DNA of 64,000 bases from an uncultured Candidatus Bathyarchaeia archaeon (GTDB lineage: Archaea > Thermoproteota > Bathyarchaeia > Bathyarchaeales > Bathyarchaeaceae), in the NCBI GenBank assembly GCA_964347995.1, contig CAYGBA010000001.1, positions 2,244 to 66,243 of the forward strand, written 5' to 3'. The notes under the pieces are model-generated. The model worked only from the letters and a program-made list of their open reading frames with translations. It was not told the origin of the DNA and made no database searches. The stretch's first letter is position 1; each line of letters begins with the position of its first letter. Below, in pieces: positions 12,674-63,230 of the stretch. The position numbers were made by a program, and so were the translations under genes.

Positions 12674-12681
12674 TTTATAAA
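12674..12681 (+). promoter_or_regulatory. TATA box (TTTATAAA) 30 nt upstream of the amidohydrolase ATG
   Basis: The sequence agctttataaacaac lies at a spacing consistent with a very short leader. Confidence 0.35.
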
Positions 12682-12711
12682 CAACTTTAGCCGCCCAACC
12701 TAATCTACGAG

Positions 12712-13989: not shown

Positions 13990-14030
13990 ACCCTCAATAT
14001 CCCCTTTTTATTTCTGTTGGAAGAGATTCG

Positions 14031-29391: not shown

Positions 29392-29435
29392 GAGTTTGTT
29401 GCCGTGTGGAAGCGGCAGACTTCATCCATCCTGTT

Positions 29436-30152
29436 TCATTTATGGGCGTGTAGACCGCATTCTTTCTTTTCTGGTGATTCCCACCACCATCTTCCAGCCC
29501 TGATGGCTTCTCCAGGTTTGATGGGTCTCGTACAGGGTTCACAGCCGATGCTGGTGTAACCTTTGTCGTAAAGCGTATTGTGAGGCACATTGCTTTTCTT
29601 GACGTACTCCCAGACCTTGTCATCGGACCAGTCAGCCAAGGGGTTTATCTTCACGATGCCTCCATGTGCATCATCGATCTCGATTTTCTTAACTTCTGTT
29701 CTTGTGACGCTTTGTCCTCTCCTTAACCCCGTGATCCATGCATCTAGGCCACTGAGGGCTCTCATCAGGGGCTCAACTTTTCTTATCTTGCAACAAAGTC
29801 TACGGTTACTAACACTCCCGTAGAACAGGTTCATCCCACGTTCTCTAACCATTTTTTCAACTGAAGCCGTATTTGGATAATAGACTTCCATCTGCAAACT
29901 GTATCTCGCTCGTATCCGCTCCATCAAACTGTATGTTTCTTGGTCAAGCCTACCAGTGTCGAGTGTGAATACCCTGAACTTAGGGTCTATTTTCGATAGC
30001 ATGTCAATCAGAGTGACATCTTCTACACTAAAACTTGAAGAGAGTGCCAGCCTAGGGTGCAACTCATCCACAGCCCATTTCAATATCTCCTGTGGTTCTT
30101 TGTTTTCAAAACTCTCAGCGAGTTTTTCTACTTCGCCTTTGCTTAGCTTCAT
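29436..30152 (-). CDS. cysH: APS/PAPS reductase (CysH), Fe-S-type signature
   Basis: The C-terminal ECGLH motif, plus CCKIRKVEPL and GCEPCT cysteines typical of 4Fe-4S APS reductases. Confidence 0.85.
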   Translation of the reverse strand: MKLSKGEVEKLAESFENKEPQEILKWAVDELHPRLALSSSFSVEDVTLIDMLSKIDPKFRVFTLDTGRLDQETYSLMERIRARYSLQMEVYYPNTASVEKMVRERGMNLFYGSVSNRRLCCKIRKVEPLMRALSGLDAWITGLRRGQSVTRTEVKKIEIDDAHGGIVKINPLADWSDDKVWEYVKKSNVPHNTLYDKGYTSIGCEPCTRPIKPGEAIRAGRWWWESPEKKECGLHAHK

Positions 30153-43076: not shown

Positions 43077-43118
43077 TCAGAATTCAAATACACTGTTGTG
43101 TGCGCCGGAGTTATGGCT

Positions 43119-44114
43119 TTATTTTTCGAAGTGCGGGGTTATGTTGTCACTTATGAGGTCAATTGACTTTCGGACATTGGGACCTATCGGTGAGCCGACT
43201 ACAAACTGTGAAATACCGGACTTGAGAAGCTCAGCAATGCGCTCTATGCACATGTCCGGAGTGCCGCAAACAGAGAAGGCTTCTATCATTCGGGAAGAAA
43301 CTAGACCAAAGGCTGCCCCCCATTTACCGGCTTTTAAGGCGTTGCTGATCTTCTCAGCCTTTTCTTCATCAATTCCGTGTCTCTGTAACACTACGTCTGG
43401 GCTGCCAGCCACAATATAGGCGACAACTGGAACTGCCGCCTGTGCGGCCTTCTCCATATTTTCATGTACCGAGAAAGATGTGTAGGCAGCGATGTCCACA
43501 TCAGTCAGCCTCTTTCCAGCTTGCTGGATTCCCTTCTTGACGCGATTAACCGCATAATCCACATCTTTGGGATGACCCGCGTTTATCAAGACTCCATCGC
43601 CAATCCTTCCGGCTAGTGCGAGCATTTTGGGACCTTGAGCACCGACGTAGATTGGGATCTCCGTTGCGGGCTTGAAGAAGAACTTTGCATTACTGGTTTT
43701 GAACACGTTGCCTTCGAAAGTAACGTTCTTCTCAATCATCATCCTTCTGACTATCTCTACACATTCTTTGACTGCTGTGAGGGGTTTATGCATCTCTAGA
43801 CCAGTGGACTTGAGCGTTGTTTTGTCCCCTGCGCCAATGCCTAAGATGACACGTCCAGTAGCTATCTCATTTAGTGATGCGACGGCTTGTGCGGTGACCG
43901 CTGGGTTGATCAGATATGGATTAGTCACTCCTGGACCAAGCTTGATTCTTTCCGTGTGGAGTGCTGCTGCGGTGAGGGTGACATAGACGTTGCGGTTGTT
44001 GAAGTGGTCTGTTATCCAGAGGTAGTCAAATCCCCGCTTCTCAGCCTGAATCGCATAGAATGTCGTCTTCCAATAAGGCTCACTTGGAACGAACTCGATC
44101 CCAAACCTAACCAT
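43119..44114 (-). CDS. mer: F420-dependent 5,10-methylene-tetrahydromethanopterin reductase (Mer)
   Basis: FGIEFVP, WITDHFNN, LGPGVTNPY, GIGAGDK, IPIYVGAQGPKML, DIAAYT, EAFSVCGTPD and VVGSPIGP all match the Mer sequence I recall block by block. I prefer the start at MVRFGIEF (44114). The ORF-track start at 44135 would overlap the upstream ORF by ATGA. Confidence 0.85.
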   Translation of the reverse strand: MVRFGIEFVPSEPYWKTTFYAIQAEKRGFDYLWITDHFNNRNVYVTLTAAALHTERIKLGPGVTNPYLINPAVTAQAVASLNEIATGRVILGIGAGDKTTLKSTGLEMHKPLTAVKECVEIVRRMMIEKNVTFEGNVFKTSNAKFFFKPATEIPIYVGAQGPKMLALAGRIGDGVLINAGHPKDVDYAVNRVKKGIQQAGKRLTDVDIAAYTSFSVHENMEKAAQAAVPVVAYIVAGSPDVVLQRHGIDEEKAEKISNALKAGKWGAAFGLVSSRMIEAFSVCGTPDMCIERIAELLKSGISQFVVGSPIGPNVRKSIDLISDNITPHFEK

Positions 44115-44131
44115 GCAGAAAATCTCCCTGA

Positions 44132-44437
44132 TCATTTTACAGCTCTAATAGCTTTTGCGACATCCAGTAATTGCAGCTTTTCCTCTAGGATGTTCATTGT
44201 TTTTTCAGATTCTAGGATGATCGCGGTCTCAAGGAGGGTGGTGAGGCCTCTCTCGTTTGCAAGTGGCCCCTGTTGCCATTGGTGAAGTAGCGTTCTTGCT
44301 AGACCATTCGGCATCTTGTCAGTGCTCTTCGATTTGAGGATGAGATCCATCAGTTTGGTGGAGAGCTTCTCTCGCTTTGTCAATGGGACCATTTCGACTA
44401 TTCTTCGATAATCCATATCAATCGCCTTTCTTAACAT
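44132..44437 (-). CDS. Small helical hypothetical protein (101 aa) immediately upstream of mer
   Basis: The ORF abuts or overlaps the mer start. No motif was recognised. Confidence 0.4.
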   Translation of the reverse strand: MLRKAIDMDYRRIVEMVPLTKREKLSTKLMDLILKSKSTDKMPNGLARTLLHQWQQGPLANERGLTTLLETAIILESEKTMNILEEKLQLLDVAKAIRAVK

Positions 44438-45525: not shown

Positions 45526-46620
45526 ATGGTCGACCCAAGAGATACTAGACTTGCTGATGTCTTAGTCAGCTACTCGATCGAGATGAAAAAGGGAGAAAAT
45601 GTTTGTTTACTCACAGATTCAACTCAGACTCTACCCCTATTCCTTGAAGTGTACAAGAAAGTCATCGCAGGGGGCGGATATCCGTATCCTCACATTTTCT
45701 TGGATCCTCACATAGGCTTTGAAGGAATGGACTATACGTTTATGAAACATGCTTCAGAGGAGCAGTTGAATCACCTTTCGCCGCTTAGACTGAAAGAAAT
45801 GGAGACGATGGATGCCTATATCAGAATTGGCGGACCCGCAAATAGTCAGGAGCTGAGTGGCATCGATCCCAAGAGAATATCGATGAGAAGGAAGACGACA
45901 AAACCGATATTGGATGAAAGGTTAAGAAAGAAATGGGTTGTGACTAGGTATCCTACTCCGTCTATGGCTCAGGCTGCGTGGATGGCTACACAGGATTTCG
46001 CAGATTTCTTTTACAACGCCTGCCTTATAGACTGGAAAGAACAAGAAACGAATCAAGAAGCCATCAAGAGGAAATTTGAAAGCGGAAAGATTGTTAGAGT
46101 GCTTGCAGACGACACTGACCTCAGGGTGAGCATAGAAGGAAGAAAATGCATAAAGTGTTATGGAAAGAAGAATATGCCAGATGGAGAAATCTACTTTGCC
46201 CCCAATGAAACATACACCACCGGGTATATCAAATACACGTACCCCTACAACATGCAAGGACAAACAATATCAGGAATATTCCTTAGGTTTGATAAAGGAA
46301 AAATAGTTGATTTCAAGGCGCAAACAAATCAGAAGGCGTTGGAAGCTCTCCTGAACACAGATGAAGGAGCAAGACGGCTAGGCGAATTCGGGATCGGAAC
46401 AAACGAAGGCATAAAACGATTCACCAGTCAAACACTCTTCGATGAAAAGATAGAGGGTACAATCCATGTCACTCCTGGAAATGCCTACGAGGACAGCGGA
46501 GGTTTGAACAAGTCAGCGATACATGCAGACATAGTCAAGGATTTAAGGAAGGAAAAGGGCGGCGGCGAAATTCAAATAGATGGTGAAACCATCCAAAAAG
46601 ACGGAAAATGGCTCCTCTAG
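45526..46620 (+). CDS. M29-family aminopeptidase (AmpS/PepS/aminopeptidase T-like)
   Basis: LADVLVSYSIEMKKGENV, a mid-protein GEIYFAP, and GEFGIGTN...IHVTPGN...HADIV are typical of the thermophilic metalloprotease M29 family. Confidence 0.75.
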   Translation: MVDPRDTRLADVLVSYSIEMKKGENVCLLTDSTQTLPLFLEVYKKVIAGGGYPYPHIFLDPHIGFEGMDYTFMKHASEEQLNHLSPLRLKEMETMDAYIRIGGPANSQELSGIDPKRISMRRKTTKPILDERLRKKWVVTRYPTPSMAQAAWMATQDFADFFYNACLIDWKEQETNQEAIKRKFESGKIVRVLADDTDLRVSIEGRKCIKCYGKKNMPDGEIYFAPNETYTTGYIKYTYPYNMQGQTISGIFLRFDKGKIVDFKAQTNQKALEALLNTDEGARRLGEFGIGTNEGIKRFTSQTLFDEKIEGTIHVTPGNAYEDSGGLNKSAIHADIVKDLRKEKGGGEIQIDGETIQKDGKWLL

Positions 46621-46671
46621 TCGCGCATGTGGTGGCGTCCAAATAGACCGCGATAGAGAGACACAGAAGGA

Positions 46672-46683
46672 GGGGGATCCCCC
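46672..46683. repeat. Perfect 12-nt palindrome GGGGGATCCCCC downstream of the M29 peptidase gene
   Basis: Read directly at 46672-46683. Confidence 0.9.
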
Positions 46684-46732
46684 TACTCAGTTTTAACGTC
46701 AAGTTGTTAGTTGGATCCAAATACTCGAACAA

Positions 46733-46756
46733 TATTGAAAACACTATTGAAAACAC
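46733..46756. repeat. Perfect tandem duplication of TATTGAAAACAC (2 x 12 nt) in the intergenic region upstream of the M20 peptidase gene
   Basis: Read directly: copies at 46733-46744 and 46745-46756. Confidence 0.9.
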
Positions 46757-46891
46757 AATTTTTTAGAACGGCACCCGCAGATTAACATTCCAAGGAGCAG
46801 TCCCCTCTCATAATCCACAAATGTGTAAAGAAGCGGTCTACGAAAGAATGGCATAGTAACTCATTAATACGCTCAGCATGAACATGACTAC

Positions 46892-48253
46892 ATGCAATTA
46901 GACAGCGTCTATAAGTGTATCGACTCCAACTCGCAAAGTTTCATCCAAGATCTCGTCCGACTTGTGAGGCAACCAAGCGTCTCTGCGAGAAAAGAAGGAA
47001 TGCAGGAGTGCGCAGAAATCGTGGACGAGATGATGAGAGAGATTGGAATCTCCACGAGGATTATCCCCGAAGAAGAGGGAAACCCTGTTGTATATGGCGA
47101 AATCAAATCGAAATCCTCTCAGAAGACGCTCCTCTTCTATGACCACTACGATGTTCAGCCGCCGGAACCGCTCGAGGAATGGATCTGCGACCCATTTGAG
47201 GGCAAGATACAAGATGGAAGAATATACGGTAGAGGCGCGGCCGACAACAAGGGGAACATCGTCTCAAGACTTAAGGCTGTTCAAGCTTTTGTCGAAACCA
47301 CGGGAAACGTGCCGATCAACATCAAATTTGTGATCGAAGGAGAGGAAGAGATAGGCAGCCCGCACCTGGCGCCAGTCATTCAGGCAAATAAGGATTTGTT
47401 TTCGGCTGACGCGGCAATCTGGGAGTTCGGCGGCACAGATCGAAAAGGGCGCCCCTTGGTCTATCTGGGGCTAAAGGGAGTATTGTCTGTAGAGTTGACA
47501 GCCAAGGGTGCATCTAGGGATGTACACTCAGCAAATGCCCCGTTGATTCACAATCCAGCTTGGCGCCTTGTGTGGACGTTGAGCACCCTGAAAAACGAAA
47601 AAGACGAAATTCTGATCCACGGTTTTTATGACAAAGTCGAACCTCCATCAGCCGAGGAAATCAGATATGCAAAAGAGATTCCTTTTGAAGAAGAGGAGGA
47701 AAAGAAAGAGCTAGGATTGAATCAGTTTCTCCACGACGTATCTGGGGTGGACGCTGTAAGAGCGTTATTGCATCAACCAACTTGCACGATAAATGGCTTT
47801 CTCAGCGGGTATACAGGCACGGGCTCCAAAACCGTGTTACCAAATAAGGCTATGGTGAAACTTGACTTCCGCCTGGTTCCTCGTCAAATGCCCGAAGAAA
47901 TCTTCAACAAACTTGTGCAACATCTGAAAAACAGCGGGTTCGGAGACATCGAAGTGCTAAAGCACAGCTCAACCGAGCCGACAAAAACACCAATTAGCGA
48001 CAGCTTCGTTCAGACCGTGATAAAAACGGCTGAGAGAGTGTACGATAAAAAGGCGGTTGTATATCCTACAAGTGCGGGCTCTGGGCCTATGCATCTGTTT
48101 CGCAACTGGCTTGGGTATCCTGTTGTCTCAGTTGGATGCGCCCATGCGGAATCACGCGGGCACGCGCCAAACGAGAACATAACGATAGACGGATTCGTCG
48201 AGGGAACGAAGTTTATGGCAACAATCATCCACGACTTCAGCGTCTCCCAGTGA
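46892..48253 (+). CDS. M20-family metallopeptidase (dipeptidase/ArgE/DapE/CPG2-like)
   Basis: LLFYDHYDVQP and GRGAADNKGNIV (M20 catalytic/metal motifs), and EGEEEIGS. Confidence 0.8.
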   Translation: MQLDSVYKCIDSNSQSFIQDLVRLVRQPSVSARKEGMQECAEIVDEMMREIGISTRIIPEEEGNPVVYGEIKSKSSQKTLLFYDHYDVQPPEPLEEWICDPFEGKIQDGRIYGRGAADNKGNIVSRLKAVQAFVETTGNVPINIKFVIEGEEEIGSPHLAPVIQANKDLFSADAAIWEFGGTDRKGRPLVYLGLKGVLSVELTAKGASRDVHSANAPLIHNPAWRLVWTLSTLKNEKDEILIHGFYDKVEPPSAEEIRYAKEIPFEEEEEKKELGLNQFLHDVSGVDAVRALLHQPTCTINGFLSGYTGTGSKTVLPNKAMVKLDFRLVPRQMPEEIFNKLVQHLKNSGFGDIEVLKHSSTEPTKTPISDSFVQTVIKTAERVYDKKAVVYPTSAGSGPMHLFRNWLGYPVVSVGCAHAESRGHAPNENITIDGFVEGTKFMATIIHDFSVSQ

Positions 48254-48343: not shown

Positions 48344-49000
48344 ATGTCATTGAAATCGATTCTTGACAGGATTCAGAATGATTTAACGAAAAGAGAGGCG
48401 GTCTGGGAAGAAATTAAGAGGGACATGCGTAGGGCTACACGATTATCTAAACAGGCGATTCTTTTCGTGCATCAACAAAGGAATGATGACGCTACGAAGT
48501 TACTCGGCGACGCTAGAGAGCTTTTCTCCAAGCTTCGCAAGGTTTCAAAGGATTATCCTGACCTAGTCTACACGGGCATGGTTGATTCGGCTCTTCAGGA
48601 GTACGTTGAGGCACAGACTTTTCTAGGTTTAATCGAGAAAGATCGATTCATCAACCCTGAAGAACTTGAGGTTCCCCCAATTTCCTATATCCTCGGGCTT
48701 GCGGATGTTATTGGAGAGTTCCGGCGCAGGACCCTTGATGCCATTCGCAGAGGAGATGTAGATACAGCTGAGAATTGTCTGCAAACTATGGAGCACATCT
48801 ACACCGAGTTAACCGGTATGGATGAGAGCTATCTCCTCGTCTCAGGGCTCCGAAGAAAATGCGACATTGCAAGACGCATCATCGAATCAACCAGAGGAGA
48901 CGTCACCATAGAAGCCCGAAGAAGCTCTTTGGAAGACTCGATCACGGAATTAGAGACAACGTTGAGGAGAAAGGGGAAGATTGGGGAAACTGAGTCCTGA
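48344..49000 (+). CDS. Translin-family protein
   Basis: The 218-aa helical protein with QEYVEAQTF and LGLADVIGEFRR resembles archaeal translin-family sequences. Confidence 0.65.
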   Translation: MSLKSILDRIQNDLTKREAVWEEIKRDMRRATRLSKQAILFVHQQRNDDATKLLGDARELFSKLRKVSKDYPDLVYTGMVDSALQEYVEAQTFLGLIEKDRFINPEELEVPPISYILGLADVIGEFRRRTLDAIRRGDVDTAENCLQTMEHIYTELTGMDESYLLVSGLRRKCDIARRIIESTRGDVTIEARRSSLEDSITELETTLRRKGKIGETES

Positions 49001-50588
49001 TAAGATTTTGAAGCAAATCGAGGAAGAGGGATTTGAGAGCGTCTGGAAGGAAAGCACAAGGCTCTTTTCAAAAGCTAAGAGACGACTTAAGCTTGTTCCA
49101 GGCAAGCGCGGCATATCCCATCCACTCTTCGATCTTCTCCAGAAGATGCGACAGTCATTTCTCAGTCTCGGTTTTATGGAGGTCTCAAATCCCGTCGTGA
49201 CCGACGAAAAAGAAGTCTACAAGCAATACGGATCTGAGGCGCCGATAATACTCGATCGTTGCTATTACTTGGCGACGTTGCCCAGACCAGACATCGGTTT
49301 GAGCAAAGCGAAGAGTCAAAAGATCGGGTCTCTTGGAGTCGAATTGACAAAACGGAAGATAGCAGCCCTACAGGATGTGTTGAGAGACTACAAGAAGGGA
49401 GAAATGGCTTCTGATGATTTTGTGAAAAGAATTTCGGAATCGCTCGGGATTTCTGATGACAAAGCCACCCAAATTCTTTCCGAGATTTTTCCAGAGTTCG
49501 CCGCTCTAGAACCTCAAACCTCCACCCTCACCTTACGATCTCACATGACAAGCGCGTGGTTTCTCACCCTGCAGGCGCTACAGCACAAGCTGGAGTATCC
49601 TCTGAAGTTGTTTTCCGTAGACATCCGCTTCCGACGTGAGCAGAGGGAGGACCCTACTCACCTTCGTGTGCATCATGCTGCGAGCTGCGTTGTTATGGAT
49701 GAGGGTGTGGATGTGAGAGATGGTGAGGAAATCACCAGAGCCCTTCTCGAGCCTCTGGGATTCGGGCAGTTCCGTTTCGCTCAAAAGAAAGTTACCTCCC
49801 GATATTACGCGCCAGGAACGGAATATGAAGGCTACATTTTTCATCCAGATATGGACGACTGGATTGAGATTGCCAACTACGGAGTGTATAGCCCAATCGC
49901 CCTCGCAAGATACGGTCTTGAACATCCTGTTCTGAATGTTGGTGTTGGAGTGGAGCGCGTGGCTCTGGTGTTGTATGGTGAGACTGACGTGAGGAGCCTT
50001 GTATATCCGCAGTTTTCCGCAGAGTGGGAGCTTACTGATGTTGAGATCGCGACGATGGTTGGGGTCGAATTGGAGCCAAGAAGTGAGGCGGGAGAAAGGA
50101 TGCGAGAGAAGATCAAAGCTACCGCGTTAGAGCATGCAGATGCCATGGCTCCATGCGAGTTCTTAGCATACGAAGGAGCAATGTTGGACAAGACTGTGAA
50201 GGTTTACGTTTATGAAACGGATAGGGGTGCCAAGCTTCTAGGGCCGGCTGCTCGGAATCTGGTCTATGTTTATGATGGAAACGTCTTGGGTGTTCCACGG
50301 AAAGGTATGGAGCGAGTGGCGATTGTGAAGAAGGCGAGGGCGGGGGGCGTATCAACTCGTCTCAGTTATTTGGATGCTGTGGCTTCTCTTGCGGCTGCAA
50401 AGGTTGAGGAGGCGGTTGAGTCTGGCGAGGAAGGGGTGAATGTTCGGGTGAGGATTGCGAAGCGTCCTAGCGATGTCAACATTGGGATAAGCGATGTGGC
50501 TCGGCGCTACGTAACAGGCAAGAAGAGGAAAATTGATGTAGCTGGGCCAGTCTTTATTGGGGTTCGAGCGGAGATTGACAAAGGTTAG
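48981..50588 (+). CDS. sepS: O-phosphoseryl-tRNA(Cys) ligase (SepRS)
   Basis: Collinear with the M. jannaschii SepRS sequence I recall: YKQYGSEAPIILDRCYYLATLPRPDIGL, TLTLRSHMTSAWF, PLKLFSVDIRFRREQRED, HHAASCVV, IANYGVYSPIALARYG and NVGVGVERVALVLYG. It has a TTG start overlapping the translin stop by 20 nt. Confidence 0.9.
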   Translation: MGKLSPDKILKQIEEEGFESVWKESTRLFSKAKRRLKLVPGKRGISHPLFDLLQKMRQSFLSLGFMEVSNPVVTDEKEVYKQYGSEAPIILDRCYYLATLPRPDIGLSKAKSQKIGSLGVELTKRKIAALQDVLRDYKKGEMASDDFVKRISESLGISDDKATQILSEIFPEFAALEPQTSTLTLRSHMTSAWFLTLQALQHKLEYPLKLFSVDIRFRREQREDPTHLRVHHAASCVVMDEGVDVRDGEEITRALLEPLGFGQFRFAQKKVTSRYYAPGTEYEGYIFHPDMDDWIEIANYGVYSPIALARYGLEHPVLNVGVGVERVALVLYGETDVRSLVYPQFSAEWELTDVEIATMVGVELEPRSEAGERMREKIKATALEHADAMAPCEFLAYEGAMLDKTVKVYVYETDRGAKLLGPAARNLVYVYDGNVLGVPRKGMERVAIVKKARAGGVSTRLSYLDAVASLAAAKVEEAVESGEEGVNVRVRIAKRPSDVNIGISDVARRYVTGKKRKIDVAGPVFIGVRAEIDKG

Positions 50589-55519: not shown

Positions 55520-56110
55520 CTACTTCAATGGAACAATCTTCACATACAATGCTTTTGTGTCTAACAAGGCTATAGTTGATTTTCCCGTTAGGTAGCCACA
55601 CACCTCTCCGGGATTTACAACAAGCGTCTTCCCCCTTCGATAGGTTTTGTCTTCATGGATGTGACCGTGCACGATCACATCATAACTGTCAGCATCAATA
55701 AGTGAGCGGAGAAGCTCCTCTTCATGGCCATGCAGCATCGCGATCTTTAGTCCATCTATCAGGATCGTTGCGAAGTTTCCACGGATGTCGGCGCCTATGT
55801 CAGCAAATTTTTTCTTCAGCAGTTCCTTGTCTCCGTCGTTATTTCCGAAGACACCGATCAGGTCTGCTTTTAAGGGTTTGAAGTGTGGTACGACAAAGGG
55901 GGCTATGTAGTCTCCTGCATGAAGAACCGAATCAACCTCTTCTTCATTTAGCCTCGTCACGGCCTTATCTAGCATAAGCAGACGGTCATGAGTGTCCGCC
56001 ATTATTCCTACAAGCAATTCATTCTCACCCGAAATCACTAATAGTATTCTCTTCTTAAAACTAGTTTTCGCTAGATTCCTTCTCCACAAGCGTGAACCTA
56101 GAACTCGCAC
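55520..56110 (-). CDS. YfcE/MJ0936-type metallophosphoesterase
   Basis: MADTHD, HAGDY, GNNDGD, LHGH and GHIH motifs. The start is uncertain because the N-terminal 35 aa look atypical. Confidence 0.75.
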   Translation of the reverse strand: MRVLGSRLWRRNLAKTSFKKRILLVISGENELLVGIMADTHDRLLMLDKAVTRLNEEEVDSVLHAGDYIAPFVVPHFKPLKADLIGVFGNNDGDKELLKKKFADIGADIRGNFATILIDGLKIAMLHGHEEELLRSLIDADSYDVIVHGHIHEDKTYRRGKTLVVNPGEVCGYLTGKSTIALLDTKALYVKIVPLK

Positions 56111-56118
56111 GCCTCATA

Positions 56119-56691
56119 CTATGAGGTAGCCCTCTCTTCCTGCAGGGCTTTTTCTCCTAGCTTAACTCCTTCCTCAAACACTCTGAGATTCAGATCCAAA
56201 TACTTCTTAGGAACCCGGGTCTTAACGGATTCTCTCATTCCGTCAACGCTGACCGCGTCCCAGATTCTTGCTAGAAAGCCCAGCATGACGATGTTTGCAA
56301 CGATCTTGGCTCCTGCTTTTTCCGCTATTTCGGTAGCTGGGACCTCATGGAGTTTGTATTTGCCTGCTTTTTCATCAGGCTTGACGAGGGCACTGTCAAT
56401 TATCAGTATTCCTCCATCCTTTAGTCTTGGCAGGAACTTTTCGTAGGCGTCTTGACCCATAATCACCATAATCTGAGGTTTGAGCGGGAAAGGATAGTCT
56501 ATTTCCTCGTCATCGATGACCACGCCACTGTGACAAGCTGACCCTCGAGCCTCCGGCCCGTAAACCTGCGTCAGGGTGCTATCTCTGTCGTCATAGACAG
56601 CGGCAGCTTGACCAGTGATGTAGCCTGCTGTGATAATTCCTTGACCGCCAAACCCTCCGAACATGATCTCCTCTCTTGTCTCTCGGTTCAT
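56119..56691 (-). CDS. 2-oxoacid:ferredoxin oxidoreductase, gamma subunit
   Basis: FGGFGGQGIITAG is typical of the OFOR gamma subunit. Size is 190 aa. Confidence 0.8.
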   Translation of the reverse strand: MNRETREEIMFGGFGGQGIITAGYITGQAAAVYDDRDSTLTQVYGPEARGSACHSGVVIDDEEIDYPFPLKPQIMVIMGQDAYEKFLPRLKDGGILIIDSALVKPDEKAGKYKLHEVPATEIAEKAGAKIVANIVMLGFLARIWDAVSVDGMRESVKTRVPKKYLDLNLRVFEEGVKLGEKALQEERATS

Positions 56692-57557
56692 TTTTCCGCT
56701 GTCGCCTCTTGTGCTATCTTCTCTTTCAATTTTTCCATGCCGTCATAATATGTTGGTTTTCCCGCCCGTTTGACAAAGTTGCCCAGGATCAAAGGCTTTC
56801 CCTTCTCAATCTGAGCCTTACTTGTATCTGCTCCGTTTCTAATTATTGAGGATCGCCTGAGCCATTTAGCCATGTCATCGGGTTCGGGAAATCTGTTTCT
56901 CCGTCCGTAATTTATTGGGCATGGTGACAAAACCTCGATGTAGCGAAAGCCCCTGATTTTCAGAGCCTCAGCGATAGACTGTTCTAATCGTCTTACGTGA
57001 ACGCTGGTCCACCTGGCGACGTAGATCGCTCCGGCTGCATCAGCCAGATGAGGGGTATTGAAGGGATGCTCGATATTGCCGTAGGGGGAGGTGGTTGTGT
57101 AGTCTCCTGTGGGGGTGGTGGGGGCAAGCTGGCCTCCTGTCATGCCGTAAATGAAGTTGTTGGTGCAGATGACGAGGAGATCAACATTTCTCCTACATGC
57201 GTGGATGAAATGGTTTCCCCCTATGGAGAAGAGGTCGCCGTCTCCAGATATGACGTTCACGCAGAGTTCTGGCTTTGTGAGTTTAATCCCGATAGCGAAG
57301 GGAATGGCTCTGCCGTGAGTCGTGTGAAAACCATCAACTTTGAGATAGCCGCATCCTCTGCCACAGCAACCTATTCCAGATACATACACGACTTTGTCTC
57401 GGGGTATGCCAACTCGTTCAAGCGCTCTGACCCATGCATACAACGTAGGGCCGATGCCGCATCCTGGGCACCATATGTGTGGTATCCGCTCAGATCTGAG
57501 CCACTTGTCCATGGGATGCAGTTTCTGATCTTTTTGTCTTACTACCTGTTTGCTCAC
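56688..57557 (-). CDS. 2-oxoacid:ferredoxin oxidoreductase, beta (TPP-binding) subunit
   Basis: WCPGCG and GDGDLFSIGGNH (TPP GDG motif). It overlaps both neighbours by 4 nt. Confidence 0.85.
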   Translation of the reverse strand: MSKQVVRQKDQKLHPMDKWLRSERIPHIWCPGCGIGPTLYAWVRALERVGIPRDKVVYVSGIGCCGRGCGYLKVDGFHTTHGRAIPFAIGIKLTKPELCVNVISGDGDLFSIGGNHFIHACRRNVDLLVICTNNFIYGMTGGQLAPTTPTGDYTTTSPYGNIEHPFNTPHLADAAGAIYVARWTSVHVRRLEQSIAEALKIRGFRYIEVLSPCPINYGRRNRFPEPDDMAKWLRRSSIIRNGADTSKAQIEKGKPLILGNFVKRAGKPTYYDGMEKLKEKIAQEATAEK

Positions 57558-58705
57558 TTTTTGCCAATTCTCCTGATTTCTTGATAAATCTCTTCAGGGG
57601 TGATTAATCTCCCTCCCATCCTCGCAAGCAAGTTGGTTTTTGCATATCCTGCGGCTTCTCTCTTCACCTCTAAGTAGATCTGGCCGTAATTCAACTCCGG
57701 GACCAGAAAATAATCAACTTGTTTCGCCCACTTTCTTATGATGTGTTCTGCAAAGGGCCAAATGGTGACAAGCTTTATGCTTCCAGCTTTGATCCCTTGT
57801 TTTCTCGCCATTTTGACAGCTCTTTTGGCTGGACGAGAAACCTGCCCGTAGGAAACAACCGCGATTTCAGCGTCATCCATCTCTTCCTCTTTTACTTCCA
57901 CTATCTCCTCCCTGTGTTTTCGAATCTTGTCATTCAGCCGCCTGATGAGCTTCTCTTGGGCCTCAGGGCTCATATCCGGATAGCCCTTTTCATCATGGGT
58001 TAGACCTGTTGTGGTGAAGGCGTATCCCTCCCCCGCACAGGCCATCGGTGGAATTAGGTCTTCGTCAGGCTCGTAGGGTAGATACGTTTCCCGCGGAACC
58101 TTGGGCTTCTTCCTTTGTACAAGTTGTATTTCATCTTCAGGCGGGACAATAACTTTCCCCGCACTGTGGCCGACGGTCTCGCTTGTCAGAAGGATCGCTG
58201 GAATCCGATATTTCTCGGCAAGATTGAAGCAGCGTATTGTAAGGTCGAAGGCGTTCTGTGGTGAGTCTGGTGAAAGGGCGATTATTTCATAGTGTCCGTG
58301 GCTTCCCCATTTCGATTGCATAACGTCCCCCTGAGCTGTAAGGGTGGGGAGGCCCGTGCTTGGAGAGCCGCGTTGCACGTTAACAATAACCGTAGGGGTT
58401 TCCATCATCACTCCTAACCCAATGTTTTCCTGCATCAGGCTGAAGCCAGGTCCAGAGGTTGCGGTCATTGTCTTGGCTCCTGCCCAAGAGGCTCCTAGGA
58501 TTGCGGCGATGGAGGCAAGTTCATCCTCAAATTGGACGAACACACCATCCACATCTAGAAACCTCCTGCAAATGCGCTCAGCTATTTCACTGGCTGGCGT
58601 AATCGGGTACCCAGCAAAAAAGCGGCAGCCCGCGGCTATGGCACCCTCTGCTATGGCGATGTCTCCATACCAAAAGTGTTTACCGGTTAAAACTGCCTTT
58701 CTCAT
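57554..58705 (-). CDS. 2-oxoacid:ferredoxin oxidoreductase, alpha subunit
   Basis: AIAEGAIAAGCRFFAGYPITPASEI and ATSGPGFSLM. Size is 383 aa. Confidence 0.85.
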   Translation of the reverse strand: MRKAVLTGKHFWYGDIAIAEGAIAAGCRFFAGYPITPASEIAERICRRFLDVDGVFVQFEDELASIAAILGASWAGAKTMTATSGPGFSLMQENIGLGVMMETPTVIVNVQRGSPSTGLPTLTAQGDVMQSKWGSHGHYEIIALSPDSPQNAFDLTIRCFNLAEKYRIPAILLTSETVGHSAGKVIVPPEDEIQLVQRKKPKVPRETYLPYEPDEDLIPPMACAGEGYAFTTTGLTHDEKGYPDMSPEAQEKLIRRLNDKIRKHREEIVEVKEEEMDDAEIAVVSYGQVSRPAKRAVKMARKQGIKAGSIKLVTIWPFAEHIIRKWAKQVDYFLVPELNYGQIYLEVKREAAGYAKTNLLARMGGRLITPEEIYQEIRRIGKK

Positions 58706-59001
58706 TCATCTGCCTCCGGCGAGTCCTTCTTCATCTCTTCAACCCAAATGCTGTACTCTGGACAGACAATCTGACAAAAGCCACAGGCGACGCAGACCTT
58801 TCCCTTCTCAGGTTCTTCAACGAGTTCGGGGAGGCGGTAGCCCTTGTTATTTACCTTGTCAGATGCTTGGAGAACTTTCATGGGACAGAAGTCGATGCAC
58901 AATCCGCATCCTTTACATCTATCCTCTATTATGTGCACTTTGCCTTTGGGGGTCTTGACCCTTTCTGAGTCCAATGGTTTGCGCCAAAGTTTCGCAGACA
59001 A
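58702..59001 (-). CDS. 2-oxoacid:ferredoxin oxidoreductase, delta (2x[4Fe-4S] ferredoxin) subunit
   Basis: CKGCGLCIDFCP and CVACGFCQIVCP. The delta-alpha-beta-gamma gene order resembles 2-oxoglutarate/2-ketoisovalerate-type enzymes. Confidence 0.8.
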   Translation of the reverse strand: MSAKLWRKPLDSERVKTPKGKVHIIEDRCKGCGLCIDFCPMKVLQASDKVNNKGYRLPELVEEPEKGKVCVACGFCQIVCPEYSIWVEEMKKDSPEADE

Positions 59002-59007
59002 TATAGA

Positions 59008-61428
59008 TCACCTGGCTTCTCTTTCCATCATCTCCGATTTCGCTATCTCTTCTCTAGTGACGCTGTTCACTGTGCATTGCATCTCTCTGATCTTGGACAC
59101 AAACTTCCCTCCCTCAGATGCGGTTATCCAGGCTAGCTGCAACCGATTCTTGTCTAAACCTAGCCTATCCATCTTCTTCCAGAGTTTCTCAACTCTTCTC
59201 TTGGTCTGGTAATTAGCGTTAATGTAATGACAGTCGCCCAAATGACAACCAGCAACCAGCACCCCTGCGGCTCCTCGTGCAAAGGCTCTCTCAACAAACT
59301 TTGGAGATACTCGGCCCGAGCACATGGTTCGGATTATACGCACATTCGCAGGATACTGCATCCTGCTGACTCCAGCAAAATCTGCACCAGCATAGGCGCA
59401 CCAATTGCAGCAAAAAGCAACAATCTGCTTATCAGCGTCTTGCTCTGTTGCAGCATCGATCTGAGCGTAGATTTGGTCATCAGTGAAATGTCTCATAGTT
59501 ATCGCGCCGAATGGACACTCCGCACCACAGGTGCCGCAACCAGCGCAGGCTGCCTCTATCACCTCGCTTCTTTCCAGCTCTTTGTTCACAGTTATCGCAT
59601 TGTAGGGACAGATTCTGGAACATAGCCCGCAAGCGGTACAAGTCTCCACATCTATCCTTGGTGTGATTGCTTCAACCGTCACCTTCCCCTTCGCCATCAG
59701 GATGCCTGCACGAGCTGCTGCAGCGCTTGCTTGAGTCACGCTGTCCTTGATGTCCTTTGGGGACTCAGCGCAACCAGCAAGGAACACTCCCCCCGTGGGG
59801 GCATCCACTGGGCGCAGTTTTGGGTGGGCTTCCATGAAGAAGCCATCAGAAGTTCGGGAGAGCGTGAAGAGGCGTTGGATTACATCGCTGTCTCGTCGTG
59901 GTTCGATGCCGATGGATAAAATAGCCATTCCAACATTGATTCTATACAATTCCTTTAGCAGAGTGTTTTCTCCAATCAGCCACAGGTTGCCACTATTTCT
60001 GTTCTCCACTATTTCCGCCGGTAATCCACGAATGAATTTTACACCTTCTTTCTTGGCCCGCTTGTAGAGATCCTCAAAACCTTTCCCATAGGCTCTAATG
60101 TCAACATAAAACACATAGATCTCGGTTTCGGGCCAGTGCTCCTTTATCAGAAGGCTGTCCTTGATTGTGTTCATGCAACAAACGTTGCTACAGTAGAGAT
60201 TTCCACTCTTATCAGAGCGGGAGCCGACACACTGAACGAAAGCTACTCTTTTAGGAATTTGCATGTCGCTCGGTCTTATCAAATGGCCTTCGGAAGGGCC
60301 ACCTGCGTTTATAAGCCGTTCAAATTCTAAAGATGTGATCACATTTGGAAATCTCGTATATCCGTAATTCACTAATGACGTAGGGTCATACACATCTGCC
60401 CCTGTGGCGACTATAATTGTGCCAACTTCTAGCTTCAGAGTTTCACGTTGCATCTCAAAATCTACAGCGTCTCTGTCGCAAGCTTTCAGGCATTCGTCAC
60501 ACGTCATCACATTATCTTGGTTGAGGCACAACTCCCTATCAATGATGTAAGTGGAGGGAACGGCTTGGGCGAAAGGGGTGTAGATGCCATGCCTCGTCGA
60601 CAGACCGATATCGAACTCGTTTGGCGCCGTGACCGGACAAACTTCCACGCATTCTCCGCACGCTGTACATTTTTCCGTTACATACCTCGGCTTCTTTAGC
60701 ACATTAGCTTTGAAATTTCCGATGTAGCCCTCAACCTCTGTGACCTCGCTGTTCGTCAACAACTCGATATTTGGGTGTCTGCCCAGATCAGACATTTTCG
60801 GTGCAAGGATGCATATGGAGCAGTCCATAGTCGGAAATGTCTTGTCGATCTGCGCCATCCTTCCGCCTATGCTCGGTTCCTTCTCCACAAGGTAGACTTT
60901 GTATCCCGTATCGGCCAAGTCGAGGGCGGCTTGGATTCCGGCAACCCCCCCGCCAATGATTAATGCCTTCCGAGCGACTGGAACCTCGATTTCCTCTTGA
61001 GGTTGAAGAAGCGCAACCTTCGCAACGGCCATTCGGACTAGGTCCTTGGCTTTTTCTGTGGCTTTCTCCTTTTCGTATAGGTGGACCCAGCTACATTGCT
61101 CGCGGATGTTGGCCATCTCGAAGAGGTATTTGTTCAGTCCTGCTTCTTCGCATGCTTTTCTGAAGGTTGGCTCGTGCAGCCGTGGGGAGCAGGAGGCTAC
61201 GACGACACGGTTGAGGTTGTGTTCTTTGATGTCGTTTTTGATTTCTTCTTGGCCTTGGTCTGAGCATGTGTAGAGGGTGTCCTTTGAGAGTGCAACATGG
61301 GGCAGGGTAGATGCGAACTTTGCAACGTCCTCGCAGTCAACTGAACCGGCTATGTTTAGTCCGCAGTGGCAGACGTAGACGCCTATCCTAGTCTCGTCTT
61401 CGGGTTTGGATGAGTGTGCTTCAGTCAT
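59008..61428 (-). CDS. hdrA: HdrA-like flavoprotein fused to a C-terminal MvhD-like domain
   Basis: FAD motif IIGGGVAGIQAALDLA and several CxxCxxCxxxCP ferredoxin clusters. The C-terminus (IVAFCCNWCAYAGADFAGVSRMQYPANVRIIRTMCSGRV...VAGCHLGDCHY) is the MvhD/FlpD domain. Total 806 aa, versus about 650 aa for a stand-alone HdrA. Confidence 0.8.
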   Translation of the reverse strand: MTEAHSSKPEDETRIGVYVCHCGLNIAGSVDCEDVAKFASTLPHVALSKDTLYTCSDQGQEEIKNDIKEHNLNRVVVASCSPRLHEPTFRKACEEAGLNKYLFEMANIREQCSWVHLYEKEKATEKAKDLVRMAVAKVALLQPQEEIEVPVARKALIIGGGVAGIQAALDLADTGYKVYLVEKEPSIGGRMAQIDKTFPTMDCSICILAPKMSDLGRHPNIELLTNSEVTEVEGYIGNFKANVLKKPRYVTEKCTACGECVEVCPVTAPNEFDIGLSTRHGIYTPFAQAVPSTYIIDRELCLNQDNVMTCDECLKACDRDAVDFEMQRETLKLEVGTIIVATGADVYDPTSLVNYGYTRFPNVITSLEFERLINAGGPSEGHLIRPSDMQIPKRVAFVQCVGSRSDKSGNLYCSNVCCMNTIKDSLLIKEHWPETEIYVFYVDIRAYGKGFEDLYKRAKKEGVKFIRGLPAEIVENRNSGNLWLIGENTLLKELYRINVGMAILSIGIEPRRDSDVIQRLFTLSRTSDGFFMEAHPKLRPVDAPTGGVFLAGCAESPKDIKDSVTQASAAAARAGILMAKGKVTVEAITPRIDVETCTACGLCSRICPYNAITVNKELERSEVIEAACAGCGTCGAECPFGAITMRHFTDDQIYAQIDAATEQDADKQIVAFCCNWCAYAGADFAGVSRMQYPANVRIIRTMCSGRVSPKFVERAFARGAAGVLVAGCHLGDCHYINANYQTKRRVEKLWKKMDRLGLDKNRLQLAWITASEGGKFVSKIREMQCTVNSVTREEIAKSEMMEREAR

Positions 61429-62885
61429 CTTCCTTCATGCCTCACTGAAACCTCAATCTCTCCACCCTTGGTGTCTTCACCCTTTAGGTAGCGATCGATG
61501 GAAAGAGCAGCCCGTTTGCCAGCTGCTATCGCTTCGATCACAGTTGCAGGTCCAGAAACAACGTCTCCGCCAGCAAATATACCGGGGAGACTAGTCTCCA
61601 TTGTAACCGGGTCAGCCAAAATCGTGTTCTGATCATCAACCTCAATTTCTTCTGGTAAAAGGGAAAGGTCAGGGCTTTCTCCGATGGCCAGTATTACCGT
61701 TTCAAGCTCCGTGGTGAACTCTGAGTCCTCAATCGGTGCAGGCCTTTTCCTCCCGGTCTCATCCAGCTCTCCCAATTCCATACGGACGCACTCTACCGCA
61801 GTAACCTGTCCATGCTCGCCCAAGATTTTTGTTGGAGACACCAAAAAGCTGATCTTCACCCCTTCGCCTTCTGCCTCTTTAACCTCCCACGGATTCGCCG
61901 GCATCTCCTCTCTTGATCTTCTGTATAGAATAGAGACGTCTTTAGCCCCCAGTTTTAGGGCTGTTCTTGCTGCGTCCATAGCAACGTTGCCGCCACCTAT
62001 CACAGCAACTCTCTCTCCGAGCTTAATCTCCTTTCCTAGGTTGGTCTTTTTCAGAAGATCGAGGGCGTAGATGACCCCTTTTAGCTCTGTACCTTCAATC
62101 CGGAGTTCTCTGCTCTTGTGAGCCCCTGTGGCGAGAAACACGGCTTTGTATCCCTCTTTTGAGAAGTCTTGTAGGGTTAACTCTTCGCCTATGGTGACGC
62201 TTGTTCTGATCTCTATGCCGAGTTTCTTCACGTGCTCGATGTCGGCTTCAAGGATTTTTTTGGGCAGCCGATAAGTTGGCATGCACTCTCTCAGCATCCC
62301 ACCGAGTTCAGAAGATGATTCAAAAACGGTGACTTGAAATCCCATCATGGCCAGTTCGCAGGCGGCGGTGAGTCCGGCTGGACCTGAGCCGACTATAGCT
62401 ATTTTCTCGCCATTCTTTCGTTGAGGAGCTGTCTCCATTTCTTTTCGAAACTCATAATTCGTCCTGATGGTTTGTAAAATGTCGATGTCAGCACGTTCTG
62501 GATGAAAGCAGACTTGTTGGCAGACTCTTGGAAGGGGGATTTCTTTGCGGATTAGTTCAGCGGCTTCCTCAAGCCCTCCGAGATAGCCTTTTTTCACGGC
62601 GAGCTTTCTGGCTCTTAAAAAAATCTCTGGAAGCAGCAGTTGTTGGGGGCACCTTCGGTAGCATCTGTAGCACCACGCACAGAGCCATAACGCCTCTTCT
62701 TTCAGCACCCCGTCTAGATCTAGAAAAATTCTTTGGAGGAGGGTTCTTGGATGATAATGTTCTGGAAGTAGCTCCACCATGGGGCAAGTTGCCGTGCAGA
62801 TACCACACTCGTAGCAGTATTGCAGCTTCTCGGCGTTAATCAATGTTTGAAGTGCACTTGTAGAATCGTGCATTGCGGCTTCCAA
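61425..62885 (-). CDS. Fusion: HdrC-like helical 2x[4Fe-4S] domain plus GltD/NfnB/SudA-like NAD(P)H-dependent FAD oxidoreductase
   Basis: The N-terminus has CYECGICTATCP and CAWCYRCYRRCP. It is followed by IAIVGSGPAGLTAACELA, VAVIGGGNVAMDAAR and IFAGGDVVSGPATVIEAIAAGKRAA (GltD-type dinucleotide sites). Confidence 0.75.
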   Translation of the reverse strand: MEAAMHDSTSALQTLINAEKLQYCYECGICTATCPMVELLPEHYHPRTLLQRIFLDLDGVLKEEALWLCAWCYRCYRRCPQQLLLPEIFLRARKLAVKKGYLGGLEEAAELIRKEIPLPRVCQQVCFHPERADIDILQTIRTNYEFRKEMETAPQRKNGEKIAIVGSGPAGLTAACELAMMGFQVTVFESSSELGGMLRECMPTYRLPKKILEADIEHVKKLGIEIRTSVTIGEELTLQDFSKEGYKAVFLATGAHKSRELRIEGTELKGVIYALDLLKKTNLGKEIKLGERVAVIGGGNVAMDAARTALKLGAKDVSILYRRSREEMPANPWEVKEAEGEGVKISFLVSPTKILGEHGQVTAVECVRMELGELDETGRKRPAPIEDSEFTTELETVILAIGESPDLSLLPEEIEVDDQNTILADPVTMETSLPGIFAGGDVVSGPATVIEAIAAGKRAALSIDRYLKGEDTKGGEIEVSVRHEGR

Positions 62886-62929
62886 GGCTACCCTCTCTAG
62901 TTTTAGGATTCTGTCTCGGATATAAAGGT

Positions 62930-63230
62930 TTACAAACGTAAACCTCTACTCTGGACTGTAAACTTTTGTGCATGCATGTAGCCGAGCTCTTCTTGGGTTG
63001 TTACTCTTCGATTCACGACTGAGTATCGGGTGTGTCTTAGGGATTCTTGGGTTCTCACGTCTTTGTATATGTCGCATGCTGATGCTGGGGCGTTTTGGGC
63101 GAGGGTCCAGAAGATCGCCTTGGTCAGCCTTTGTGTTCTTCCTGTGAAGACGGGAAGTTTTGGCGTGCTTCTTTCCTAGATTGGGCAGGGTCTCTCGGAT
63201 CTTACGGAACTCATCCAACAATGTTAGAAT
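62930..63230 (-). pseudogene. Probable frameshifted small wHTH gene
   Basis: One minus frame reads LLDEFRKIRETLPNLGKK and then turns into implausibly basic sequence. Another frame, open only from 63175, reads RSTPKLPVFTGRTQRLTKAIFWTLAQNAPASACDIYKDVRTQESLRHTRYSVVNRRVTTQEELGYMHAQKF..*, which looks wHTH-like but has no start codon. A TATA-like CTTATATAGG lies at 63291-63300. Confidence 0.3.

Follow-up and report, generated by a model that had tools for sequence, protein, structure and literature searches.

Bathyarchaeia are among the most abundant archaea of anoxic sediments, and how they supply or dispose of low-potential reductant is unresolved. In published reconstructions of their metabolism, bifurcating hydrogenases are missing and the substrates of Hdr are not known (PMC7886697, PMC11697101). 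The locus described here bears on this question. It lies in a 64,000-nt stretch (the "window") of contig CAYGBA010000001.1, from an uncultured Candidatus Bathyarchaeia archaeon, and comprises seven genes (g1 to g7) encoding, in this order, an NAD(P)H flavoprotein with an HdrC-type domain, an HdrA fused to MvhD, the four subunits of a 2-oxoacid:ferredoxin oxidoreductase (OFOR), and a phosphoesterase. An initial annotation, made from the sequence alone, had read these genes as one operon for a possible NAD(P)H-linked bifurcating or confurcating module. Do they form a single unit, and does HdrA exchange electrons directly with the OFOR? The analysis shows that g1-g6 form a conserved unit. With about even confidence, it is proposed that this unit encodes an HdrA bifurcating module that is reversible, linked to NADP(H), and hard-wired to an OFOR of the KOR type, the third redox partner being encoded elsewhere.

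A conserved six-gene unit

The features of the locus are listed below, in the direction of transcription.

62929-62942, minus strand: operator-like palindrome TTTAC-N4-GTAAA, abutting the TATA box on its upstream side
62920-62926, minus strand: archaeal TATA box, TTTATAT, ~38 nt ahead of the TTG at which g1 starts
61425-62885, minus strand: g1, HdrC-type 2x[4Fe-4S] domain (residues 20-103) and NfnL/GltD-type FAD/NADPH flavoprotein (residues 103-477)
59008-61428, minus strand: g2, HdrA (FAD and Fe-S domains) with a fused C-terminal MvhD [2Fe-2S] domain, HdrA2 type
58702-59001, minus strand: g3, OFOR delta subunit, a 2x[4Fe-4S] ferredoxin with two CX2CX2CX3C motifs
57554-58705, minus strand: g4, OFOR alpha subunit assigned to the KOR/OOR clade, with POR_N and PFOR_II domains
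56688-57557, minus strand: g5, OFOR beta subunit, thiamine pyrophosphate (TPP) and [4Fe-4S], with TPP_enzyme_C domain, GDG...NN TPP motif, and CPGC
56119-56691, minus strand: g6, OFOR gamma subunit, PF01558 POR (E 3e-34), last gene of the conserved unit
55520-56110, minus strand: g7, YfcE-family metallophosphoesterase, Metallophos_2 (E 6e-34), TIGR00040

The seven co-directional open reading frames (ORFs) stand exactly where the initial annotation had placed them, all on the minus strand. From the longest-ORF starts, the successive junctions measure -4, +6, -4, -4, -4, and +8 nt. The tight spacing first described (4-nt overlaps or gaps of at most 8 nt) holds from g1 to g6 and probably fails at g6-g7: the true start of g7 is probably the TTG at 56016, preceded by a Shine-Dalgarno-like GGTGA, which leaves a gap of ~103 nt, compared with 8 nt for the longest ORF. 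The Pfam domain of g7 begins at residue 33.

All seven proteins were searched with tblastn against 80 loci, of which 58 carry g1 at 50% identity or more. Collinearity was counted over the 39 species-level loci having at least 5.6 kb of sequence downstream. The closest relatives of g1 in reference genomes all belong to Bathyarchaeia and share 53-63% identity with it, while metagenomic proteins reach up to 90%. g2 is the most conserved protein of the cluster (74-85% identity in 52 loci), and the OFOR subunits fall lower still than g1. Among the 58 loci, g2 is adjacent to and co-directional with g1 in 52, divergent in four, and absent in two. Genes g2-g6 follow g1 collinearly in 35 of the 39 loci, and because this order is kept at merely 53-63% g1 identity, the arrangement is far beyond chance. 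The synteny of the gltD-like, hdrA-mvhD, and OFOR genes, which the initial annotation had singled out for comparison, is therefore kept in relatives, and the linkage of HdrA-MvhD with an OFOR is not restricted to this genome. Spacing is kept as well: intergenic distances in relatives have medians of -7 to +4 nt, the genes overlap or nearly touch in ~97-100% of loci, stop and start codons overlap from g2 into g3, and g3 holds its position in 36 loci.

The conserved unit has six genes, not seven. g7 follows g6 in only seven of 37 related loci, overlapping the g6 stop codon in five of them; it is a lineage-specific passenger, probably co-transcribed, and not a redox component. In most genomes, the unit ends at g6 with convergent housekeeping genes downstream, which we read from their sequences as rpS3Ae, then SerRS. 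In most relatives, the convergent gene abuts the g6 stop codon, which explains why oligo-T runs 3' of g6 are rare (5/37 loci).

At the other end of the unit, the palindrome TTTAC-N4-GTAAA upstream of g1 occurs as a sole exact copy in the window. Of the 53 Bathyarchaeia loci that could be tested, 43 have it together with the TTTATAT box at ~60 nt upstream of the g1 start, and four more have it with a variant box. It is missing in exactly those loci where g1-g2 are not followed by an OFOR. The TTTATAT box and the palindrome are interpreted as a promoter with a predicted operator, and their conservation before g1 supports a single regulated transcription unit starting there. The palindrome also suggests that a dedicated regulator acts at this site. 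Of the single operon of seven genes initially described, g1-g6 are thus retained, as a proposed regulated operon, and g7 is left outside the conserved unit.

In 35 related loci (e.g., L001, 5659-6687), g1 has a divergent neighbor, at a median distance of 145 nt, with DAP_DH_C and DapB_N domains (a 2,4-diaminopentanoate dehydrogenase-like amine dehydrogenase). Further upstream, on the other strand, are 5-oxoprolinase-like pxpA/B/C (~20 loci) and moaE (30 loci) genes. The window instead holds an EamA-type permease-like ORF, read from its translation, that runs off its end (~63.4-64.0 kb). The dehydrogenase-like, pxpABC, and MoaE neighbors were set aside as functional hints, being on the other strand and absent from the window. 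Bathyarchaeia-type g1-g2 pairs (g1 56-62% and g2 80-81% identity) also occur in two metagenome-assembled genomes (MAGs) labeled Anaerolineales and Krumholzibacteriaceae (L002, L033), the latter with the full g1-g7 set; these are probably mis-binned archaeal contigs.

Two redox proteins and a four-subunit oxidoreductase

The gene-level reading of the initial annotation, namely an HdrC-type NAD(P)H flavoprotein, an HdrA-MvhD, and an OFOR without HdrB, is borne out by Pfam and NCBIfam domain calls. The g1 protein matches Fer4_8 and Pyr_redox_2. Its N-terminus matches the HdrC family TIGR03290 (E 7e-20), and residues 20-103 align with solved HdrC chains (E ~1e-17) over both CX2CX2CX3CP motifs, the eight cysteines of which are kept without exception in 30 homologs. 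Beyond HdrC residue ~111 (of 184) there is no further alignment; where HdrC has its C-terminal extension, g1 has the flavoprotein. This absent part is presumably the one that binds HdrB in the HdrABC structure.

Residues 103-477 of g1 match NfnL-type proteins (NfnA of NfnABC, NfnI-L, Thermotoga NfnB, StnA, GltD, and DPD) with 270-334 bits, NfnABC NfnA scoring highest (334 bits). An AlphaFold2 model (mean predicted local distance difference test, pLDDT, 81.5; predicted template modeling score, pTM, 0.85) finds its top fold matches in NfnI-L (483 columns), NfnABC, StnA, and GltD. The N-terminal region is as long as that of NfnL, where a Fer4_20 dicluster domain is usual; in g1, Fer4_20 gives a weak, partial Pfam match (E 0.0024). 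The HdrC-type domain therefore stands in for Fer4_20 and is not appended. The double CX2CX2CX3C domain noticed at first is thus present, as a replacement rather than as an extra fusion. The flavoprotein carries two GxGxxG/A motifs, and its YRRS stretch (residues 321-324) aligns with the matching stretch of NADPH-oxidizing NfnL-type proteins, which in this family would denote NADPH specificity. An additional conserved motif, C(122/123)-x2-3-C126-x-H128-x-E130 (window 62498-62522), sits where NfnL proteins ligate the FAD-proximal cluster, and may form a third, unusually ligated Fe-S site; its C122/123, C126, and H128 are as invariant as the eight HdrC-type cysteines. No gene for NfnS/NfnA (FAD and [2Fe-2S], NAD-binding) was found in the operon or among the scanned ORFs of the window. 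In the public record, g1 is called as a 337-residue protein (P0019; 100% identical, 69% coverage) that begins at an internal Met; the HdrC-type domain is therefore omitted from the annotation, and the truncated call hides the key domain of the protein.

The g2 protein exceeds the cut-off of the NCBIfam HdrA2 model NF040770 (1283 bits; cut-off 1100). Residues 11-659 match the methanogen HdrA solved for M. thermolithotrophicus (5ODC_A, 859 bits), and the C-terminal MvhD domain initially recognized is confirmed by MvhD/FlpD PF02662 (E 2.8e-49, residues 669-788) and by solved MvhD chains (~155 bits, residues 665-791), the [2Fe-2S] motif CX2C...C...CX4C being intact. The protein shows the class features of HdrA: a thioredoxin-reductase-fold FAD domain and N-terminal, inserted, and C-terminal Fe-S domains. 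One motif departs from the canonical pattern. In the inserted ferredoxin domain, the second cluster motif (C301-C317, window 60478-60528) reads CX8CX2CX3C (CLNQDNVMTCDECLKAC), a variant present in 40 of 40 OFOR-linked HdrA orthologs examined, whereas the methanogen enzyme and a Hadarchaeota copy linked to formylmethanofuran dehydrogenase (Fwd) have the canonical CX2CX2CX3C at the same site. In Hdr structures, the inserted domain is the low-potential exit of HdrA; the variant could reflect adaptation to the partner or plain lineage drift. A search for contigs encoding g2 returned a single 4.5-kb Logan contig, which added no source-genome context.

The OFOR gene set is complete, in the order delta-alpha-beta-gamma, and its subunits show no unusual additional domains in Pfam and NCBIfam. 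The alpha subunit g4 scores 547 bits against NF006412 (cut-off 411), 436 bits against the P. furiosus 2-keto acid:ferredoxin oxidoreductase alpha subunit (1YD7), 252 bits against 2-oxoglutarate synthase (8YS5_A), and 49 bits against POR (9BT4). The beta subunit g5 scores 230 bits against that of 2-oxoglutarate:ferredoxin oxidoreductase (8YS5_C). Given these best solved relatives, and scores below 50 bits for POR and oxalate oxidoreductase, the OFOR is assigned by sequence to the KOR/OOR clade, with 2-oxoglutarate as the likely substrate. The best NCBIfam matches of g3 are OGOR_delta and OorD, both under cut-off.

Weak NCBIfam matches of the OFOR include subunits of the NADH-dependent phenylglyoxylate dehydrogenase, and the non-bifurcating HdrA homolog 6TJR is among the structure matches of g2. 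Both would suit a linear, non-bifurcating NADP+-dependent 2-oxoglutarate dehydrogenase/synthase, in which electrons run from the OFOR through delta, the HdrA clusters and FAD, the HdrC-type clusters, and the g1 FAD to NADP+, and HdrA is a mere wire. Such a chain would resemble the NAD+-linked phenylglyoxylate:acceptor oxidoreductase PadEFGHI, or the non-bifurcating HdrA of sHdr. It would also account for an operon that encodes no third substrate module. However, g2 keeps the full domain and cysteine set of a bifurcating HdrA together with MvhD, and it is very strongly conserved, all of which would be needless in a simple wire. Moreover, ~200 mV would be wasted in the oxidative direction and carboxylation could not be driven reductively. 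The linear chain is considered distinctly unlikely.

Proposed electron routes and a possible third redox partner

Bifurcation requires three redox couples, of which two can be assigned from the operon; the third partner must therefore be encoded elsewhere. The initial annotation had seen no CCG-domain (HdrB-type) gene in the window, and this is upheld by a six-frame regular-expression search, Pfam scans of 47 ORFs, and tblastn with a TfrB-type query, which likewise shows tfr to be absent from the window. No conserved CCG domain occurs near g1 in the 80 loci (regular-expression search over ORFs), with four sporadic cases. FlxA-D and separate HdrB or HdrC genes are also lacking; only an MvhD (FlxD-like) domain is present, fused to HdrA. 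Matches to the [NiFe] large-subunit motif in L013 and L022 are group-4/complex-I-like and lie several kb away; they were judged unrelated.

Could HdrB and HdrC simply be encoded elsewhere, g2 working as a canonical HdrA2B2C2-type heterodisulfide or disulfide reductase, so that its adjacency to g1 and the OFOR is mechanistically meaningless? This appears most improbable. g1 already supplies an HdrC-type domain, overlaps g2 by 4 nt, and adjoins it in 52 of 58 loci; it lacks the part of HdrC presumed to bind HdrB; and the conservation of g1-g6 is too strong for chance. For the canonical complex speaks the name "CoB-CoM heterodisulfide reductase HdrA2" given by NCBIfam and NCBI to g2 and its close relatives, as does the position of hdrA2 in Methanosarcina, which is not adjacent to hdrB2C2 (PMC5296606; PMC6085437). 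A Bathy-6 genome also lists hdrCB at a separate locus (PMC11697101), and the present genome may likewise encode an HdrBC pair elsewhere. In the Bathy-6 genome, however, hdrA-mvhD adjoins the polyferredoxin gene mvhB, like the polyferredoxin-linked copies described below and unlike the OFOR-linked copy (PMC11697101).

Candidates for the third partner appear in two genomes. In L044, a complete Bathyarchaeota chromosome (CP070683), tfrA/tfrB-type genes (6395-9682) lie directly upstream of g1 and are co-directional with it: the tfrA-type flavoprotein has FAD_binding_2 and Succ_DH_flav_C domains, and the TfrB-type protein has Fer2_3, Fer4_8, and two CCG domains. In L041 (3533-9829), a MAG, g1 is flanked by an FAD_binding_2/Fe-S/CCG trio and an additional HdrA-MvhD paralog.

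The g1-g2 pair itself is modular, and its close paralogs or orthologs adjoin Fwd, aldehyde:ferredoxin oxidoreductase (AOR), or polyferredoxin genes. The relevant loci are the following.

L052, Hadarchaeota MAG, 4481-14474: mtd-ftr-g1-g2-fwdDB-fwdA-fwdC
L047 and L049, Bathyarchaeota: divergent g2/g1 beside polyferredoxin and AOR
L035, Bathyarchaeia: g1-g2-polyferredoxin
L005 and L007, one MAG: two copies, a co-directional g1-g2 pair whose contig stops inside g2 and a divergent pair
L057-L079, Desulfobacterales: HdrA-like (450 residues), HdrA-MvhD-like (695 residues), and g1-like (585 residues, 37% identity) proteins
L072, Clostridiales MAG: single 1505-residue HdrA-NfnB-type fusion

In L052, the NADPH/HdrA module is joined to Fwd and to genes of the tetrahydromethanopterin (H4MPT) pathway. 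The partner enzymes KOR, Fwd, and AOR all work with electrons of about -500 mV or below. The bifurcating or confurcating idea gains indirect support from these Fwd, AOR, and polyferredoxin neighbors, from the Tfr-like and CCG genes of the two genomes above, and from a bacterial analogue (see below).

According to the proposal, g1-g6 would encode a soluble multi-enzyme complex. The HdrC-type domain of g1 would dock at the HdrC site of HdrA, and its clusters would provide the electron path between the flavin of HdrA and the NADP(H)-binding FAD carried by g1, the latter replacing the absent HdrB. The four-subunit OFOR would exchange very low-potential electrons directly with HdrA via its delta ferredoxin subunit, a wiring resembling that of Fmd/Fwd with Hdr in methanogen supercomplexes. 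The module would thus link NADP(H), the succinyl-CoA + CO2/2-oxoglutarate couple, and a third couple encoded outside the operon. Two scenarios may be drawn. In scenario A (anabolic), NADPH would be the donor, and the third couple would be fumarate/succinate via a Tfr-type CCG enzyme, or a thiol/disulfide carrier: 2 NADPH + fumarate + succinyl-CoA + CO2 -> succinate + 2-oxoglutarate, driving two steps of the reductive branch of the tricarboxylic acid (TCA) cycle. With succinyl-CoA carboxylation at ~-500 mV and fumarate or disulfide at ~0 to -150 mV, the mean acceptor potential would be ~-245 mV, so that NADPH at -320 mV could drive both steps. The Tfr neighbors and the bacterial analogue support this scenario. 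In scenario B (catabolic), during glutamate fermentation, electrons from KOR and NADPH would be merged onto a mid-potential acceptor, e.g., H+/H2 via an Mvh-type partner docking at MvhD. Port homology favors scenario B, because NADP(H) would then be on the arm that is high-potential in HdrABC. The third partner could also be a mid-potential donor or acceptor at MvhD rather than a high-potential one. Two other assignments of the ports were considered. F420H2 as donor with NADP+ as high-potential acceptor, by analogy with HdrA2, was rejected on our own estimate of the potentials (~-340 to -380 versus -320 mV). The OFOR might instead be a mid-potential donor entering at MvhD, which would give no thermodynamic reason for bifurcation.

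Several points weigh against the proposed module. The third redox partner that bifurcation needs is found neither in the operon nor in the window. Tfr-like neighbors occur in only two of ~55 loci, and in L044 a separate promoter is retained between tfrB and g1. The dehydrogenase-like and 5-oxoprolinase neighbors of relatives hint at amino-acid catabolism, although they are absent from the window. The assignment of 2-oxoglutarate as the OFOR substrate is weakened by the beta, gamma, and delta subunits, all of which fall short of the OGOR- and Oor-specific NCBIfam cut-offs. NADP(H) on the high-potential arm of HdrABC would fit scenario B better than A, so that direction and port assignment are tentative. 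Finally, the genes may be neighbors because their products share free ferredoxin, with no physical complex between them.

This last point leads to another explanation, in which g1-g2 are a free-standing Nfn-like NADP(H):ferredoxin oxidoreductase, bifurcating or not, that shares a soluble ferredoxin pool with KOR without physical coupling; the delta subunit would then talk to free ferredoxin and not to HdrA. Ordinary four-subunit KOR/OOR enzymes use free ferredoxin, and this one has no unusual additional domains. The g1-g2 pair also occurs with polyferredoxin alone (L035) or without a partner enzyme, and a shared carrier is a common reason for enzymes to be grouped in one operon. Against this stand the gene order unchanged over deep divergence, with its g2/g3 stop-start overlap; the paralogous g1-g2 copies of the L005/L007 MAG, apparently paired with different low-potential enzymes; the ferredoxin-domain insertion of HdrA seen in every OFOR-linked ortholog examined; and the precedent of hard-wired Hdr-Fmd supercomplexes. 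Overall, a free-standing enzyme is regarded as unlikely.

A broader claim, that these proteins represent an uncharacterized class of HdrA-based bifurcating enzymes in which an NADP(H) flavoprotein replaces HdrB and the OFOR (Fwd or AOR in relatives) is an integral subunit, is put forward tentatively and is itself rather doubtful. If it were true, Bathyarchaeia could drive or harvest reactions at ~-500 mV, namely the carboxylation of succinyl-CoA to 2-oxoglutarate, from NADPH and a third couple such as fumarate or H2, with no need for free ferredoxin, coenzyme M/coenzyme B (CoM/CoB), or a membrane potential. g1-g2 would then be a portable plug-in of several uncultured archaeal lineages.

Related systems and other genes of the window

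No earlier description of the Bathyarchaeia g1-g6 cluster was found in the literature, and in papers on Bathyarchaeia the genes for KOR/Oor, Hdr, and "sulfide dehydrogenase" (sud/nfn) appear as unconnected entries. HdrA-based bifurcating systems are already known, and a bacterial Hdr-KOR analogue has been published as a hypothesis; it is the archaeal form that is without found precedent. QmoABC of sulfate reducers offers a distant parallel, as an HdrC-type dicluster domain is fused there to another input module and works with HdrA-like and HdrA-MvhD-like flavoproteins. QmoC differs from g1 in having a membrane cytochrome b, and its partner is adenosine 5'-phosphosulfate (APS) reductase, with no OFOR. 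The Desulfobacterales loci listed above similarly carry an HdrC-type domain on a different input module, beside HdrA-like and HdrA-MvhD-like proteins.

The HdrA2B2C2 enzyme of Methanosarcina acetivorans (Yan et al. 2017, PMC5296606) shares with g2 the fusion of HdrA and MvhD, and its hdrA2 gene adjoins a polyferredoxin gene, as do g1-g2 of L035 and L049. In contrast, the operon and the window hold no HdrB2 (CCG) partner, the role of HdrC falls to one domain of an NADPH flavoprotein, the system is linked to KOR, and no link to the CoM/CoB heterodisulfide or to F420H2 is evident. The same authors listed an HdrA2 homolog of Bathyarchaeota BA1 and speculated on NADH-using relatives (PMC5296606).

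Homologous HdrA, MvhD, and HdrC modules build the Mvh/Fdh-HdrABC-Fmd(Fwd) supercomplexes (5ODC, 7BKB, 9SW6; PMC13580544), and PDB entries 7BKB and 9SW6 contain HdrA together with Fmd/Fwd subunits. A 2026 paper on Mvh-Hdr-Fmd supercomplexes describes Hdr as feeding low-potential electrons directly to Fmd (PMC13580544). The principle shared with the present proposal is that low-potential electrons of HdrA go directly to a CO2-fixing, ferredoxin-dependent enzyme. Here, however, the partner is a 2-oxoacid oxidoreductase and not Fmd, NADP(H) is a substrate, and the surroundings contain no gene for a hydrogenase, a formate dehydrogenase, or HdrB.

The closest bacterial analogue is the tfrBA-hdrCB-korDABC-hdrA-flxDCBA arrangement found in reductive TCA (rTCA) clusters of tubeworm symbionts and Thioflavicoccus, where it is highly transcribed. 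Rubin-Blum et al. (2019, PMC6315080), who reported it, hypothesized a direct delivery of bifurcated electrons to OGOR and thiol:fumarate reductase, with fumarate reduction as the high-potential sink. Like g1-g6, it places a four-subunit korDABC among hdr genes with a pyridine-nucleotide input module. In the bacterial cluster, FlxABCD (NADH) enters via FlxD/MvhD, and HdrB and HdrC are kept as separate proteins, whereas in g1-g6 the roles of Flx, HdrC, and HdrB fall to one HdrC-GltD protein, HdrA carries MvhD as a domain, and tfr genes mostly do not adjoin the cluster. Both couplings are hypotheses.

The FAD/NADPH part of g1, with its NADPH-type YRRS stretch, resembles the NfnL-like modules of NfnSL, NfnABC, and StnABC (5JCA, 4YLF, 9BOV, 9N5U, 8OH5; PMC11829005), which the AlphaFold2 model matches over the full length. 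In comparison with NfnL, the N-terminal domain of g1 is of HdrC type instead of Fer4_20, only C-x2-3-C-x-H-x-E is left of the proximal-cluster motif, and no NfnS, BfuB, or BfuC partner accompanies it. In NfnABC, the closest solved relative of the g1 flavoprotein part, the FAD of the NfnL-like subunit was shown to be a terminal port for NADPH rather than the site of bifurcation (Li et al. 2025, PMC11829005), which speaks for the proposed module. HdrA and an NfnB/GltD-type NADPH module are also combined in the HdrA-NfnB fusions HdrA9-11 of ANME-1, for which a role in connecting NADPH with Hdr bifurcation was suggested (Chadwick et al. 2022, PMC9012536), and in the Clostridiales protein of L072. 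In these fusions, the NfnB part is inserted in HdrA's ferredoxin domain within one polypeptide, while here it is a separate protein with an HdrC-type domain; a link of the ANME-1 fusions to an OFOR is not reported (PMC9012536).

The g1-g6 operon, nearly universal and apparently under its own regulation, ties an almost canonical bifurcating HdrA to NADPH and KOR, and is thereby a concrete, testable candidate for handling low-potential reductant in Bathyarchaeia. If the proposal is true, HdrA chemistry would extend beyond disulfide reduction, and the Hdr-OGOR coupling that has been proposed for rTCA cycles of bacteria would have a counterpart in archaea.

Other genes of the window touch on C1, sulfur, and amino-acid metabolism and on translation. 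In a single 492-residue ORF at 1136-2614 (minus strand), a DHDPS-family domain is joined to a formaldehyde-activating enzyme (Fae) domain at the C-terminus, and a second, stand-alone DHDPS-family gene lies at 11588-12481. Adjacent genes for ATP sulfurylase and a protein with a PAPS-reductase domain (28291-30152, minus strand) suggest assimilatory sulfate activation in this anaerobic archaeon. At 41892-44135, an SHMT gene (plus strand) adjoins a luciferase-like oxidoreductase gene (minus strand), possibly F420-dependent and Mer-like, and genes for peptidases M29 and M20 are found at 45526-48253. Finally, a 535-residue class II aminoacyl-tRNA-synthetase-like protein (48981-50588, plus strand) has only the tRNA-synt_2d core according to Pfam, and is a candidate O-phosphoseryl-tRNA synthetase.

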